This document shows positions 17,839 to 22,998 of a stretch of 32,000 nt of DNA, piece by piece. Source of the DNA: Calidithermus timidus DSM 17022 (GTDB lineage: Bacteria > Deinococcota > Deinococci > Deinococcales > Thermaceae). Made by a program: the position numbers and the translations under genes. The notes under the pieces were generated by a model that was not told the DNA's origin, made no database searches, and saw only the letters and a program-made list of their open reading frames with translations. The DNA lies in NCBI RefSeq assembly GCF_000373205.1, contig NZ_KB890703.1:1-32000 (forward strand). The letters run 5' to 3'. How positions within the stretch are numbered: the first letter of the stretch is position 1; each line of letters starts with the position of its first letter.

Positions 17839-18078
17839 TTAGCGCCTGTAGCCCCTAGGGCGCAACTTGGGCTGATAGGGGCAGGGGCTGGGATAGCGGC
17901 ACACCCGCCGCCCCTCACGCAGAGCAGCCACCTCAAGAGTATTCAGAGGCTCACGACAACGGGCGCAGCGGACGCGGGTATCAGGTTGCCGGGAGCGCCC
18001 AGGGCCACTCAGAGAGCGCAGCATCCAGGCCGTCCAGCCGATCACCAGTAGGAGCAGGAGCAGAGCTAGAAGGTTCAC
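17839..18078 (-). CDS. Small membrane/Cys-rich ORF overlapping the 3' end of the Zot-like gene in the +1 frame; possibly the missing TM/C-terminal part of pI
   Basis: 79 aa from GTG 18078. NLLALLLLLLVIGWTAWML is a TM helix, followed by CARC...(17 aa)...CRYPSPC. There is no SD. It overlaps 17981-18078 of the Zot ORF. Confidence 0.4.
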   Translation of the reverse strand: MNLLALLLLLLVIGWTAWMLRSLSGPGRSRQPDTRVRCARCREPLNTLEVAALREGRRVCRYPSPCPYQPKLRPRGYRR

Positions 18079-18913
18079 GGAGCGATTCTAGCCGCTCACG
18101 GAGCAGCTCATGCGGTCGTTTGCCCTCACGATATGCAGTAGCCAGATCAGCAATGGACAGCGACGGGAGGCCGTCAGACGGAGCAGCGCGGCCCCCGCGC
18201 ACCTTCGATGCATCCCAGGCCAGCCCCATACGATCGACAACAGCCCGGCGCTTGGGATCTAACTCTCGCTGCAAACGCACAATGGGAGGCTCGAAAATCG
18301 CGTGCGTGTCGTAGCAGGAAGCCGCCAGCGGGTCGAGCGCGACGATATCGTTACGGGCTACGCCTTCCCAAATGCCATGACTAGTACGCTGCATCATGCC
18401 GATGGACTCATCCATGATTGCCGTATAGCGGAGGAGTCGGCGACCACGAGTCCAGGGGAACGTGAGCAGTCGCAGCCAGAACGGAGCCGGACGTGCCCAG
18501 TAAACGAACGCCACGAGATCACGGACGATAGCGTCCACCGAGCCGTAGCGTTGCGTGGCCAACAGGACGTCGACGCCAGCCTTGCGGTGCTGGCTCCAGA
18601 ATGCGATGACCTCAACTGGGATCAAATCAAACTGTCGCGACGGCAGCCACATATGCGCCTCATCGAACAGGAGGAGGCCGTCATAAACGTTCAGCAGCTC
18701 ATCATAGCCGCGTATCTCCCCGATGGAGTCGGCAGCCAGGACCGCCTCACGATGTCCGAATCTGGCCCTGAGGCGGAGCCAGTGATAGACGTTCTCCCGA
18801 ACAAACGCAAAATTCGCGTAGAGACGACGACCCCGGACCAGAGCGCGCAGGCCCCGGTGGACGAGCATGTAACTTTTGCCCGAGCCCGGAATGCCAACGT
18901 ATGCCTCAATCAT
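17981..18913 (-). CDS. Zonula occludens toxin (Zot)/pI-like inovirus assembly ATPase
   Basis: I prefer ATG 18911-18913 (MIEAYVGIPGSGKSY..., Walker A) after a G-rich SD. Walker B is LLLFDEAHMW. The ATG overlaps the stop of the upstream pVI-like ORF (ATGA). 310 aa as called, with no TM helix in this frame. Confidence 0.85.
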   Translation of the reverse strand: MIEAYVGIPGSGKSYMLVHRGLRALVRGRRLYANFAFVRENVYHWLRLRARFGHREAVLAADSIGEIRGYDELLNVYDGLLLFDEAHMWLPSRQFDLIPVEVIAFWSQHRKAGVDVLLATQRYGSVDAIVRDLVAFVYWARPAPFWLRLLTFPWTRGRRLLRYTAIMDESIGMMQRTSHGIWEGVARNDIVALDPLAASCYDTHAIFEPPIVRLQRELDPKRRAVVDRMGLAWDASKVRGGRAAPSDGLPSLSIADLATAYREGKRPHELLRERLESLREPSSSAPAPTGDRLDGLDAALSEWPWALPAT

Positions 18914-19269
18914 CTGCCCCCCCGTATAAACGTGATCACGCGCCAGAGGGACATGACGGAGTAGAAAGCCCCCCACACTCCAGCCATAGTAAGAGCCTCA
19001 GAGATAGGCAGTATTTGATTGGCGGCCCCAGCAACCCCAAGAACATAACTCAGGCCGGAGGGCGGAGACGGCATGGCAGGCAACATCCCCACAAGAATAT
19101 TAAGCAGGCCCACAACAATGTGTAGCAGCCCGGACACGAGCCAGAGAGCCGCTGCTACCAGCCACTCTAAGATTTGTCCCAGCCAGCCAACGACCCACGC
19201 GCCCACAGCAGCGAGAGCATCGGCAAACCAACGAACGATGTTAGCGACGGCTTGAACCACTGCACCCAT
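18910..19269 (-). CDS. pVI-like minor coat/assembly membrane protein
   Basis: 119 aa from ATG 19267-19269, preceded by GGAGGTG. It has several hydrophobic helices (WVVGWLGQILEWLVAAALWLVSGLLHIVVGLLNILVGML...). Its position between the pIII-like and pI genes matches Ff gene VI. Confidence 0.55.
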   Translation of the reverse strand: MGAVVQAVANIVRWFADALAAVGAWVVGWLGQILEWLVAAALWLVSGLLHIVVGLLNILVGMLPAMPSPPSGLSYVLGVAGAANQILPISEALTMAGVWGAFYSVMSLWRVITFIRGGR

Positions 19270-19309
19270 TCCACTCACCTCCAAAAGCAAGAGGATGATT
19301 TATCTAAAC

Positions 19310-19438
19310 CCCCGCCCCCTTCCCCATAGAGGGGAGGCGGGGCCCCACCCTACGCGCAAGGCGGCCTACGGCCCCCTTCGGGCTAACGGCCTTGCGCTTC
19401 GGGCACCCCGCCAGGAGCAAACAGCAGGGGGGGCGGGG
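19310..19438 (-). promoter_or_regulatory. Structured GC-rich intergenic region with three hairpins: candidate terminator, internal promoter, or packaging/origin signal
   Basis: Hairpin 1 (19310-19342): CCCCGCC/GGCGGGG plus an inner TCCCC/GGGGA stem. Hairpin 2 (19354-19397): GCGCAAGGC/GCCTTGCGC, 9 bp, with an inner GCCC/GGGC stem. Hairpin 3 (19406-19438): CCCCGCC/GGCGGGG. On the coding (minus) strand hairpin 1 is followed by GTTTAGATAAAT. Confidence 0.4.
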
Positions 19439-19461
19439 AGAAATGGCAGGGAGAAACGAGC

Positions 19462-21206: not shown

Positions 21207-21310
21207 CAGAATCTCCTGTAGAGATTCCCAGCATATCGATATGCGGCCAAAAGGACGTAGGGAGCAGAGACAGCGGCCAGCACCCAAAGAAACCAATCCT
21301 GTGGATCCAT
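21206..21310 (-). CDS. Tiny hydrophobic ORF (34 aa), pVII/pIX-like
   Basis: MDPQDWFLWVLAAVSAPYVLLAAYRYAGNLYRRF. Its ATG (21308-21310) overlaps the upstream stop as ATGA. Not in the ORF track (<60 aa). Confidence 0.45.
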   Translation of the reverse strand: MDPQDWFLWVLAAVSAPYVLLAAYRYAGNLYRRF

Positions 21311-21387
21311 CAGAAATCCCCCAGAATGGCCCCGGCAATGAGCCCAAGAGCAAACGCGAGGATCTTCAGAATCTCCAGATCAAGCAT
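21310..21387 (-). CDS. Tiny hydrophobic ORF (25 aa)
   Basis: MLDLEILKILAFALGLIAGAILGDF. Its ATG (21385-21387) overlaps the last codons of the gV-like ORF. Not in the ORF track. Confidence 0.4.
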   Translation of the reverse strand: MLDLEILKILAFALGLIAGAILGDF

Positions 21388-21676
21388 TGGCCTTTTCCTT
21401 GACAGGAGCGACGGCGGCCAAAAATCTAGCAGCGGTGACGAACTGCCGCGCAATGTTTTTCTCCCGGAAACCATCCCTAACGCGCAGATCGATCTGAAGA
21501 TCGTAGAGCCCTGGAAAAACGTTCATACCAGCTACCACGTCAGGGTCAGCGTCCAACTCCAGCGCATTTAGTCCGCGATAATCCGAGCTAGACGGGGTAG
21601 TTGCCACGACGATGCCAGCAAAACGCCTGCCATCCTTAGAAAGCCTGCTAGAAGCCCCTAGAACCATCAACGTCAT
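21380..21676 (-). CDS. gV-like protein (putative ssDNA-binding protein), assigned by position and size
   Basis: 98 aa from ATG 21674-21676, preceded by GGAGGAG (the alternative ATG 21688 gives 102 aa). Its position between the rep and coat modules matches Ff gene V. I cannot confirm any sequence motif. Confidence 0.45.
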   Translation of the reverse strand: MTLMVLGASSRLSKDGRRFAGIVVATTPSSSDYRGLNALELDADPDVVAGMNVFPGLYDLQIDLRVRDGFREKNIARQFVTAARFLAAVAPVKEKANA

Positions 21677-21711
21677 AATCTCCTCCATGCAAACGGCTTA
21701 GCCGTAGTTGC

Positions 21712-22998
21712 CTACGTAGAAGCGACTCCCCCATAGCGCCCCAGAGCAGAGAGATAGCGAGCGCTGAACTCGTCGGTAGAGAGCGCCGCGATACGCGAGG
21801 GATCCAGCCCGAGCAAATAACGAACACGTCTCAGCCACGCCAGCAGCAGCGCCGGAGCTGGAGCCGAGTGGTACAGCCCCAGAGATGCCGCGGCAGAAAT
21901 TACGCAGCCGACCGCTTGCGTGAGCAAACGAGCCGCGTCAGCCAGTGGCGCACGCACTGAACGGGACACAGAGCCCGCAGAGCCGGCATCAAACGCAGCG
22001 ATCACGTGAAGCCACAACGGATCAAGCCCGCGATTGCGCACAGCTGCGTCGCCATGCGACTCACGCAGAGTCAGCCACTCACGCGAGAGATAGGCCCAGA
22101 GCGAGCCCAGCGCGCCGCGGAGGATGTCCCAGTCACGCAGATCACGGCCAACGCCAATATCCATTGTCGCAAGGGCGTCAGCCCGCACCTGATACTCAAC
22201 GCGGATAACGTGCCCCTCGGGATTGCCGTAAGACTCCAGCAGGAGCTTAGCGCCATAGTCAGTACGAGCCTGGAGACTTTTGGAGTACACGCGAGCCAAG
22301 AGGTCACCTGCCCCGAACCGGAAACCAGACCAGGACGGCCCCCGATAGTGAATTTCTACGGGATGGACTTCATAGGCGGGTGTCTCGTGCATAGCGGCCC
22401 CCGTGTTACCCATAAGGGGGCCGCCCTGGGGCGCTTGCGCGCCCGCAGGGCTGGACCAGATGGAGCGGGAGCGAGCGCGGCTAACGAAGCGGCCCAGATC
22501 ATCCAGACCTAGCGGAGCAGGCGCCAGGATGTCAGCAAAGAGGTCGACGCGCGACACCTGGACCCGCTCGGGCTGAGCGCCGACCAGCGCCGACAACTCC
22601 TGGACAATCATGGCAACAACAGCGTCTACATCACGGGCAGCAGCCATCATGTAGCGACCCGAAATTTCGACATAGGCTTGCACCTGTCCGGTACGCCGGA
22701 CAGTGGGGCGCGGATGAGCAAGAGAAACAGACAGCATCCCCCCCTGGAACATCAGACGCCAGCGGAATTTGCGGCCGGGCTGAACCTCGCAAACCTGATA
22801 ATCGCCGCGAGAGGCATCCCCCAGTGGATTCCACAGAGGCAGATACTCGTTAATTCCGAGAAAACGGCCCTCCCCATGCTCGCGAAAATTGGACAGAGCA
22901 GCGTCGAGAGCGGCCTGAAACGATGCTGGGAGATCGTAGGAGTCCCCCCAGGAGAGCCAGAAGACAAAGGTGTCAACGCCGTAGCCGAGTAGAGACAT
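21712..22998 (-). CDS. Rolling-circle replication initiation protein (Rep_trans/RstA-like)
   Basis: 428 aa and the first gene of the train. The motifs SRVDLFADI and ...GDLLARVYSKSLQ... resemble the RxDxAxD and RxYdK signatures of the Rep_trans family (CTXphi RstA, pT181 RepC) as I recall them. Confidence 0.6.
   Translation of the reverse strand: MSLLGYGVDTFVFWLSWGDSYDLPASFQAALDAALSNFREHGEGRFLGINEYLPLWNPLGDASRGDYQVCEVQPGRKFRWRLMFQGGMLSVSLAHPRPTVRRTGQVQAYVEISGRYMMAAARDVDAVVAMIVQELSALVGAQPERVQVSRVDLFADILAPAPLGLDDLGRFVSRARSRSIWSSPAGAQAPQGGPLMGNTGAAMHETPAYEVHPVEIHYRGPSWSGFRFGAGDLLARVYSKSLQARTDYGAKLLLESYGNPEGHVIRVEYQVRADALATMDIGVGRDLRDWDILRGALGSLWAYLSREWLTLRESHGDAAVRNRGLDPLWLHVIAAFDAGSAGSVSRSVRAPLADAARLLTQAVGCVISAAASLGLYHSAPAPALLLAWLRRVRYLLGLDPSRIAALSTDEFSARYLSALGRYGGVAST

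Follow-up and report, generated by a model that had tools for sequence, protein, structure and literature searches.

A filamentous prophage of Calidithermus timidus with its own IS110-family recombinase and a putative bridge RNA whose guides match both prophage junctions

The DNA analyzed here, called the window below, is the 32,000-nucleotide stretch at positions 1 to 32,000 of contig NZ_KB890703.1 of Calidithermus (formerly Meiothermus) timidus DSM 17022, a host confirmed by exact-sequence look-up of three encoded proteins (WP_018467929.1, WP_018467928.1 and WP_018467933.1). It contains a 6,254-bp prophage of a filamentous phage (inovirus) on the minus strand at 16762-23015, with ends given by the guides of a putative bridge RNA and by an empty site in related genomes. 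The prophage resembles the Thomixvirus phages of Thermus thermophilus, and very likely it was integrated by its own IS110-family recombinase with a bridge RNA that guides the enzyme to one host site and one phage site.

A first-pass annotation made from the sequence alone had described a complete inovirus gene train, in the order of the Ff genes, at 17839-22998. The ORF list and direct translation confirm that all the open reading frames (ORFs) it named are present, tightly packed and co-directional on the minus strand; there are ten of them, as itemized in that annotation, and not the eleven of its count. The train is not the complete element, since the bridge RNA gene, the recombinase gene and the ends fall outside it. 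From one end to the other the order is gII, gV, gVII, gIX, a small transmembrane (TM) ORF, gVIII, gIII, gVI, gI, orf79, bridge RNA and IS110 recombinase, and the same order is found in the free phages phiOH16, Zuza8 and Zuza27. Searches of GenBank phages by blastn and tblastn returned five records from only four filamentous phages of T. thermophilus, OH3, phiOH16, Zuza8 and Zuza27. The records of OH3, phiOH16 and Zuza8 are assigned to the family Paulinoviridae, genus Thomixvirus; that of Zuza27 is unclassified below 'Viruses'. With four complete Thermus inovirus genomes available, the earlier remark that thermophilic inovirus genomes are scarcely characterised does not stand. Individual related loci are denoted below by L numbers where they have to be told apart.

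Ends of the prophage and the empty site

The prophage lies between the hisA terminator on one side and the start codon of a lapA-like gene, itself followed by recJ, on the other. Its G+C content is 60.8%, against 65-66% in the flanks. Each end carries a CT dinucleotide. The attL junction (23009-23022, minus strand) reads GGATAGT-CT-TACAC and is composed of a host left-target half-site, the CT core at 23015-23014 and the right donor half-site of the phage. The attR junction (16755-16768, minus strand) reads GGGATGT-CT-AACGC, with the left donor half-site of the phage, the core at 16761-16760 and the host right-target half-site. In its wider context, the minus strand past the recombinase stop codon reads GGC-TTGACA-AAAGTTTTGGGATGT-CT-AACGCC and then enters the hisA terminator, and ahead of gII it reads GGGGATAGT-CT-TACACATCTCCTAAG-ATG.

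Deletion of 16762-23015, with one CT kept, predicts a plus-strand host site of ...GGCGTT-AG-ACTATCCCC-ATG, where ATG is the start of the lapA-like gene, and a repaired attB of ...GGCGTT-AG-ACTATCCCCATG...; the predicted attP junction of the excised phage is TTTGGGATGT-CT-TACACATCTCC, or in a longer form ...TTGACAAAAGTTTTGGGATGT-CT-TACACATCTCCTAAGATG.... Two genomes reached through HisA homologues, GCA_003574345.1 (L051) and a JGI metagenome contig (L052), have an uninterrupted GGATAGT-CT-AACGC and agree at every position, for more than 44 nt, with the window minus 16762-23015. Their HisA is 89% identical, and their lapA-like gene begins 52 nt after hisA. The element is thus an insertion with base-precise ends. 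An exact search of metagenome contigs for the predicted empty site gave no match. The element is mobile: related genomes have the empty site, and relatives of the prophage are located elsewhere or occur as free phages.

The recombinase and the bridge RNA

Directly downstream of the gene train is a gene for an IS110-family (bridge) recombinase of 302 aa (17694-16786, minus strand; WP_018467928.1). The protein contains the Pfam domains DEDD_Tnp_IS110 (PF01548, E 8e-24) and Transposase_20 (PF02371, E 2e-22) and matches two bridge recombinases with solved structures, IS621 (8WT6, E 5e-35) and ISCro4 (9T56, E 6e-36). Its residues D6, E46, D88, D91 and S234-G235 align with D11, E60, D102, D105 and S241-G242 of IS621, in which D11, E60, D102, D105 and S241 are catalytic (PMC11208158). 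Its counterparts in phiOH16, Zuza8 and Zuza27 are 58-60% identical; OH3 keeps only the last 56 recombinase codons.

The 138 nt between orf79 and the recombinase gene (17835-17698, minus strand) constitute the putative bridge RNA gene. Two similar modules can be recognized, each with an outer stem, an internal loop and a GGCC-UUCGU-GGUC hairpin, and a consensus structure of two modules was obtained with RNAalifold from an alignment of eight sequences. In the target loop, the left target guide (LTG; GGATAGTCT, 17812-17804, minus strand) reads in the same direction as the left host half-site and the CT that follows it, and the right target guide (RTG; GCGTTAG, 17787-17781, minus strand) is the reverse complement of CT-AACGC, which joins the core to the right host half-site. 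In the donor loop, the left donor guide (LDG; TTTGGGATGT, 17755-17746, minus strand) corresponds to the left phage half-site and the right donor guide (RDG; GTGTAAG, 17729-17723, minus strand) to the reverse complement of CT-TACAC.

Homologous stretches are present in all recombinase-bearing relatives. A first regular expression for the RNA motif gave chance hits only, and a covariance model was used instead. This model scores the window RNA at 97 bits (E 1.8e-19) and finds 28 hits in 40 sources, with two more in L049 and L050; every hit is in a phage contig, upstream of a recombinase gene wherever the contig extends that far. Among 23 distinct sequences, 91% of cells in the pairing comparison are paired, against 31-52% with slid partners, and 11 stem pairs have changed on both sides. 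The guides are hypervariable, with 1.4-1.5 bits per column in the target loop versus 0.25-0.44 bits in the stems, and the AG of the core never varies.

About 8-10 nt upstream of the 5' end of the RNA (17836-17850, minus strand) there is a -10-like box, TAACCT in the window, TAATCT in phiOH16 and TAGAAT in Zuza8, Zuza27, L008 and L011, with no convincing -35 sequence. This box may be a promoter of the bridge RNA itself.

Guides and junctions in related elements

For each element, 14-mers (7 nt, CT and 5 nt) were built from its guides and searched in its own contig. In the window, the prediction from LTG plus RDG matches attL at 14 of 14 positions and that from LDG plus RTG matches attR equally well. 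Exact matches were also found for attP of phiOH16 and Zuza8, for junctions of L007, L011, L029, L031, L032, L033, L041 and L042, and at both ends of L043 and L049. In L050 the match is 14/14 at attR and 13/14 at attL, and several further junctions match at 13/14. A cross-control that set guides against other loci was noisy, since relatives share half-guides; a permutation test on distinct elements was used in its place. With 10 different right flanks represented, the right-target guides match their own flanks at 46 of 50 positions, whereas the permuted mean is 21 and none of 100,000 permutations reaches the observed value. The left-target guides match at 40 of 42 positions, a value attained by 147 of 100,000 permutations.

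Across some 20 relatives the guides are hypervariable and change with the junctions of each element. The window prophage, L049 (gII 77% identical) and L050 (gII 60%) have the right donor half-site TACAC in common and carry three different target loops at three different host sites, which has the look of guide re-programming. For the free phages, the guides predict integration at CAGTATA-CT-TTCCC (phiOH16), GGGTAAG-CT-TTGGG (Zuza8) and GGGTAAA-CT-CAAGG (Zuza27). OH3 (L001; 28-151 and 88-246) retains the target loop, the target-binding half of the RNA, along with its recombinase remnant, the donor loop and the greater part of the gene having been deleted. This fits its published description as a deletion derivative (PMC11437467), and the deletion would be what made OH3 non-integrating.

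Several Zuza8-like elements (L033, L031) have the target GGGTAAG-CT-TGGG(T/G), a nearly palindromic sequence that contains AAGCTT. The junctions of L033 (6.6 kb) lie at opposite ends of its contig, which therefore holds little beyond the prophage. A second prophage clade (L006, L007, L037 and L039-L043), from metagenome-assembled genomes (MAGs) of Thermaceae and from metagenomes, has gI 63-65% identical; here the phage genes and the bridge RNA run one way and the recombinase gene the other, with the TTGACA/donor end immediately beyond the recombinase start codon. L050 is at 9977-16520 of contig Ga0117932_1001582 in metagenome JGI 3300009945, which also holds an exact copy of the window prophage. 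Only three distant MAG prophages were found in a scan of GTDB representatives.

A putative promoter at the attachment site

The two ends of the prophage each carry half of what would be a promoter in the circular phage. The -35 half, TTGACA (16777-16782, minus strand), is 3 nt past the recombinase stop codon, and the -10-like half, TACACA (23008-23013, minus strand), is 9 nt upstream of the gII ATG. In the reconstituted attP of the window phage they form TTGACA-17 nt-TACACA, the core being part of the spacer. In every relative inspected TTGACA is invariant at the recombinase end and a TACnnn hexamer follows 17-18 nt on, across the core; from this hexamer it is 9-13 nt to the start codon of gII. 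OH3 and phiOH16 have TACAAT here, Zuza8 has TACCGT, Zuza27 TACTAT and L043 TACCCT, and TACACA is shared by the window, L049 and L050. The TTGACA-18-TACAAT of phiOH16 is the best promoter-like site of that genome (11/12). When the minus strand of the integrated element in the window was scanned for promoter-like sites, none passed. The layout is the same in both donor orientations, and promoters at the circle junction are a known feature of IS110 elements (PMC11208160).

From this arrangement we infer that the attachment site lies within the promoter of gII and that integration splits it. With the hexamer so close to the ATG, and no Shine-Dalgarno sequence, the gII message would be nearly leaderless, which would make read-through from the host ineffective. 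Splitting of the promoter may thus stand in for a repressor.

Proposed mode of integration and its alternatives

We envisage that the double-stranded replicative form made after infection would act as the 'donor' circle. In the complex of recombinase and bridge RNA, the two loops would pair with one site each, GGGATGT-CT-TACAC on the phage and the target site on the host; strands would be exchanged at CT through a serine-linked intermediate, as in IS621, and the whole phage would be inserted. The phage would amount to an IS110 element loaded, between its left end and the bridge RNA, with about 4.9 kb of inovirus cargo. The next step is the weaker one: integration would part TTGACA from TACACA and so turn off gII, rolling-circle replication and virion production in the prophage, and excision would re-form the circle and turn gII on again, in place of a repressor. 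The junction promoter could perhaps drive the RNA and the recombinase too, through the co-directional operon. Virions would then be assembled by gI and leave through a host secretin.

A wider proposal follows the same lines for the group as a whole, namely that these inoviruses are built as RNA-guided transposons in which the virus is the IS110 cargo, the bridge RNA is re-targeted among close relatives, and the attachment site within the replication-gene promoter gives an integration-off, excision-on switch with no repressor; the group would then provide natural bridge recombinases from thermophiles. We advance this proposal tentatively, with somewhat more doubt than confidence.

A number of observations weigh against RNA-guided integration or against the promoter switch. 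A scan of 15500-24500 against Rfam, at E up to 1, found no family. Folded as a single sequence, the RNA does no better than shuffled sequences (z -1.17), and its minimum-energy fold has a target loop that departs from the consensus. On its 5' side the donor loop lacks CT at the core positions; in the window's subclade the left target guide is shifted by one base with respect to the others; and in L006, 3 of 12 flank positions do not match the element's own guides. The -10 hexamer of the window, TACACA, has no canonical T at position 6 and fails the scan rule; the idea of a promoter switch is weakest for this phage on that account. Excision of IS621 has been reported to be inefficient (PMC13626964). 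Finally, the six contigs that carry this phage (five samples, 100% identical) are all integrated at the same site, and an exact search of IMG/VR for its circular junction found none.

The last of these points, with the non-canonical -10, would also be expected if the prophage were correctly identified but inert, domesticated or decaying, incapable of excision, replication and virion formation. Consistent with decay, the related L050 of the shared metagenome has only short gene calls at the place of gIII and may itself be decaying. Yet every gene of the window prophage is full length and visibly conserved, and the recombinase retains all its catalytic residues. There has been no drift since insertion, as both junctions are still matched by the four guides at 14/14, and the empty sites in related species indicate that the insertion is recent. 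We consider an inert prophage rather unlikely.

Instead, the non-coding stretch might be protein-binding or regulatory DNA, a replication origin for example or the 5' untranslated region of the recombinase gene, and might resemble the junctions through shared descent of repeated ends. The unremarkable single-sequence fold and the Rfam result would agree with this, as would the left guides, which have the same sense as the sites they match, in the manner of terminal repeats. The right guides, however, are reverse complements and not copies, and the stems show compensatory changes. Moreover, the target guides match host sequence that differs from element to element (the 10 right flanks with 46/50 matches), so end repeats cannot explain the matches, and the adjacent gene encodes a homolog of recombinases whose structures were solved in complex with such RNAs. 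A purely regulatory role of the stretch is very improbable.

Hardly credible is that the IS110 gene is an ordinary insertion sequence beside an inovirus prophage that integrated otherwise, for example by host XerCD as in CTXphi: IS110 elements are common in Thermaceae and the first-pass annotation did see the phage genes as a self-contained block, but the recombinase is at the same place in the free circular phiOH16, Zuza8 and Zuza27 and as a remnant in OH3, the donor guides match the outer ends of the 6.25-kb unit and not those of a 1.2-kb unit around the recombinase, and deletion of exactly 16762-23015 restores the site of the relatives. Both XerCD-type integration and an independent insertion of the IS were rejected on these grounds.

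Phage genes

PHROG searches gave strong matches for seven products, those of gII, gV, gIX, gVIII, gIII, gVI and gI. The gII protein (22998-21712, minus strand; 428 aa, WP_018467933.1), a putative rolling-circle replication initiator, matches phrog_33635 'endonuclease' (E 3e-70) and is 37-38% identical to gII of OH3, phiOH16, Zuza8 and Zuza27. It had been called Rep_trans-like before, and this holds for its fold but not for its profile. The window protein has no Pfam match even at E 10, two of six homologues reach the Rep_trans profile (PF02486) only at E 0.021, and a profile search against PDB sequences found nothing. An AlphaFold model built from a 12-sequence alignment (predicted local distance difference test score, pLDDT, 77) matches the Rep_trans initiator RepSTK1 of Geobacillus (4CIJ) in Foldseek with E 2.8e-9, probability 1.0 and a target TM-score of 0.55-0.58, and RepDE (4CWC, 4CWE) with E 4e-7 to 8e-7; Rep_trans initiators are its best structural matches by a wide margin. 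As modelled, gII is a Rep_trans protein at the level of the fold and stands outside the profile family. Its invariant residues include R150-x-D152...D156 and Y238-S-K240, of which Y238 is presumably catalytic.

Three small ORFs after gII were assigned by position and by homology to phage genes that were themselves assigned by position. The gV-position ORF (21688-21380, minus strand), encoding a putative single-stranded DNA-binding protein of 102 aa, or 98 aa from a later start, matches phrog_38435 (E 1e-18) and shares 41-47% identity with gene V as annotated in the four phages. The hydrophobic gVII-position ORF (21387-21310, minus strand; 25 aa) corresponds in position and size to OH3 gene VII and has a weak PHROG match. 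The gIX-position ORF (21310-21206, minus strand; 34 aa) matches phrog_38437 (E 6e-14) and is 53-68% identical to gene IX of the phages. Between gIX and gVIII there is a further TM ORF of 28 aa, MAEVAAAFWWGLAAGLVAGALRSVLRRL (21206-21120, minus strand), with a translated match at the same place in about 25 relatives. It is kept in all four GenBank phages, where it is unannotated, and follows the pattern ..AAFWWGLxAGLVAxxLRxxLRRL. This hydrophobic product may be a third small virion or assembly protein.

The major coat precursor, gVIII (21100-20879, minus strand), is of 73 or 69 aa with a mature form of 49 aa, and matches phrog_33753 (E 1e-17) and Pfam Phage_Coat_B (PF05356; E 2e-5, 24.9 bits against a gathering score of 23.5). 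The first-pass annotation had the coat matching that of Thermus phage PH75 at roughly two thirds of positions, and alignment agrees: about 30 of 44 residues (about 68%) are identical to the PH75 coat (PDB 1HGV, E 1.2e-14). A terminator-like hairpin was found by consensus scan directly after gVIII (20850-20825, minus strand), with an 11-bp stem, 8 of them GC, and a T-rich tail; it sits within the signal-peptide codons at the 5' end of gIII. Ff phages have a terminator at the same position, after gene VIII.

The putative adsorption protein gIII (20877-19462, minus strand; 471 aa) has a signal peptide, a TSP3 calcium-binding repeat (Pfam TSP3_bac, E 5e-7) and a C-terminal anchor; it matches phrog_36046 (E 3e-63) and is 34-36% identical to gene III of the phages. 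The polytopic minor coat protein gVI (19290-18910, minus strand; 126 or 119 aa) matches phrog_37052 (E 8e-18) and is 33-36% identical to phage gene VI. The Zot-type assembly ATPase gI (18976/18913-17981, minus strand) is of 331 aa, or of 310 aa from the deposited start (WP_018467929.1). The form with the long GTG start is not on record, the deposited protein beginning at the ATG at 18913. Its earlier description as a Zot-like ATPase is upheld by Pfam Zot (PF05707; E 5.6e-13, 49 bits against a cut-off of 20.3) and by phrog_20922 (E 3e-124), and it is 71-77% identical to pI of OH3, phiOH16, Zuza8 and Zuza27.

The last ORF of the train, orf79 (18078-17839, minus strand), overlaps the 3' end of gI and encodes a TM helix and a zinc-ribbon-like tail, CxxC...C...CPY. 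It has no Pfam or PHROG family. It is kept in place in L049 (95% identical), L050 (67%), Zuza8, Zuza27, the second clade and others; OH3 and phiOH16 lack it, and no GenBank phage record has it annotated.

The element contains neither a secretin gene nor a repressor-like ORF, as the first-pass annotation had also noted, and its antisense ORFs, which would be candidate repressors, have no Pfam match. Since a phage secretin gene is missing, as it is from the complete 5.7-kb OH3 genome, the virions are presumably exported through a host secretin.

Flanking host sequences

A 111-aa ORF with a LapA domain has been called from an ATG at 23007 (plus strand). It is a host-phage chimera whose first six codons (23007-23024) are prophage DNA. 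The native start of the lapA-like gene is at 23025, as in L051 and L052, and gene callers have chosen this start on other contigs. Integration replaces all sequence upstream of lapA-recJ from 9 nt before the start codon, that is, up to the CT core, and might alter recJ expression.

Near the C-terminus of RecJ there is a 42-nt tandem repeat (25147-25269, plus strand), 2.5-2.9 copies of which encode DDPLSGQPMAVHQQ. RecJ is of 690, 704 (window) or 718 aa in otherwise identical contigs, so the number of repeat copies varies between populations. At about 3500-5500 the window has 74-76% G+C, against 63-68% elsewhere.

Significance

The phage group, its Ff-like gene order, the PH75-like coat and the IS110 transposase have all been published, and genes of this strain were noted in 2016: the Zot protein WP_018467929.1 of M. 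timidus DSM 17022 is already listed as a phiOH3 homologue (Nagayoshi 2016, PMC4763002). Thermus proviruses bounded by an endonuclease gene and, at the opposite end, an IS110 transposase have been described, and transposase-mediated integration was proposed for them by analogy with the Nf phages of Neisseria (Kolesnik 2024, PMC11437467). The novelty claimed in the first-pass annotation therefore fails, and the prophage is a further member of a described group. What this analysis adds is the exact boundaries of the element, proof of its mobility in the form of an empty site, and evidence at the level of sequence for a recombinase that works with a bridge RNA. The statement that such a phage integrates by its own transposase thereby becomes a base-by-base mechanism open to test. 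The analysis also suggests how a filamentous phage with no repressor could stay silent, and it provides a set of naturally re-targeted recombinase/RNA pairs from thermophiles that may interest genome engineers. A full-text search of a limited literature collection found no paper that links bridge RNA with inoviruses or with these phages.

Comparison with known systems

The prophage shares with OH3, phiOH16, Zuza8 and Zuza27 the gene order from gII to gI (tblastn, every window ORF) and a coat that is 57-64% identical. Other features in common with the Thomixvirus phages are the IS110 recombinase after gI, the bridge RNA gene upstream of it, and the TTGACA...TACnnn junction before gII. It differs from them in host genus (Calidithermus), in its target and donor guides and in being integrated here, whereas they are known as free genomes; gII, gIII and gVI are only 33-38% identical, and blastn gives about 70% nucleotide identity over 17% of the element. 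At this distance it is not of the same species as any of the four isolates; it is probably a separate species and possibly represents a separate genus. With Thermus phage PH75 (PDB 1HGV, 1HGZ, 1HH0) the mature coat aligns end to end, a comparison limited to the coat, as only the sequence and structure of that protein are known and the PH75 genome was never deposited (PMC4763002).

The Nf/MDA prophages of Neisseria (Kawai 2005), as they are described in the papers that cite them (PMC11437467, PMC4763002), resemble the present element in that integration of an inovirus is ascribed to its own IS110-family enzyme at one provirus end; they belong to an unrelated lineage and host, and the likeness is one of description. 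Recently reported 'expanded' IS110 elements (bioRxiv 10.64898/2026.08.14.744561) are also similar in that recombinase and bridge RNA move several kb and target guides match the flanks. Their cargo is different, consisting of resistance and plasmid-like genes with some matches to phage references, and the words 'filamentous', 'inovir' and 'Thermus' do not occur in that preprint.

Mechanistic parallels exist with IS621 and other IS110 elements (Durrant 2024, PMC11208160; Hiraizumi 2024, PMC11208158), which have the same DEDD RuvC-like domain and Tnp domain with a catalytic serine, a two-loop RNA with left and right target and donor guides and a CT core; their circle-junction promoter may have a counterpart in the TTGACA...TACnnn arrangement. 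The pairing geometry is also that of IS621, the LTG having the sense of the left target plus core and the RTG being the reverse complement of core plus right target (PMC11208160). Several differences set the present system apart. Its RNA gene immediately precedes that of the recombinase and is separated from the junction by about 5 kb, and the putative junction promoter faces the phage replication gene and not the RNA. The core positions of its left donor guide are not CT. One clade has an inverted donor site and another an inverted recombinase gene. The source is thermophilic, and the mobile unit is a complete virus, carried as some 4.9 kb of cargo.

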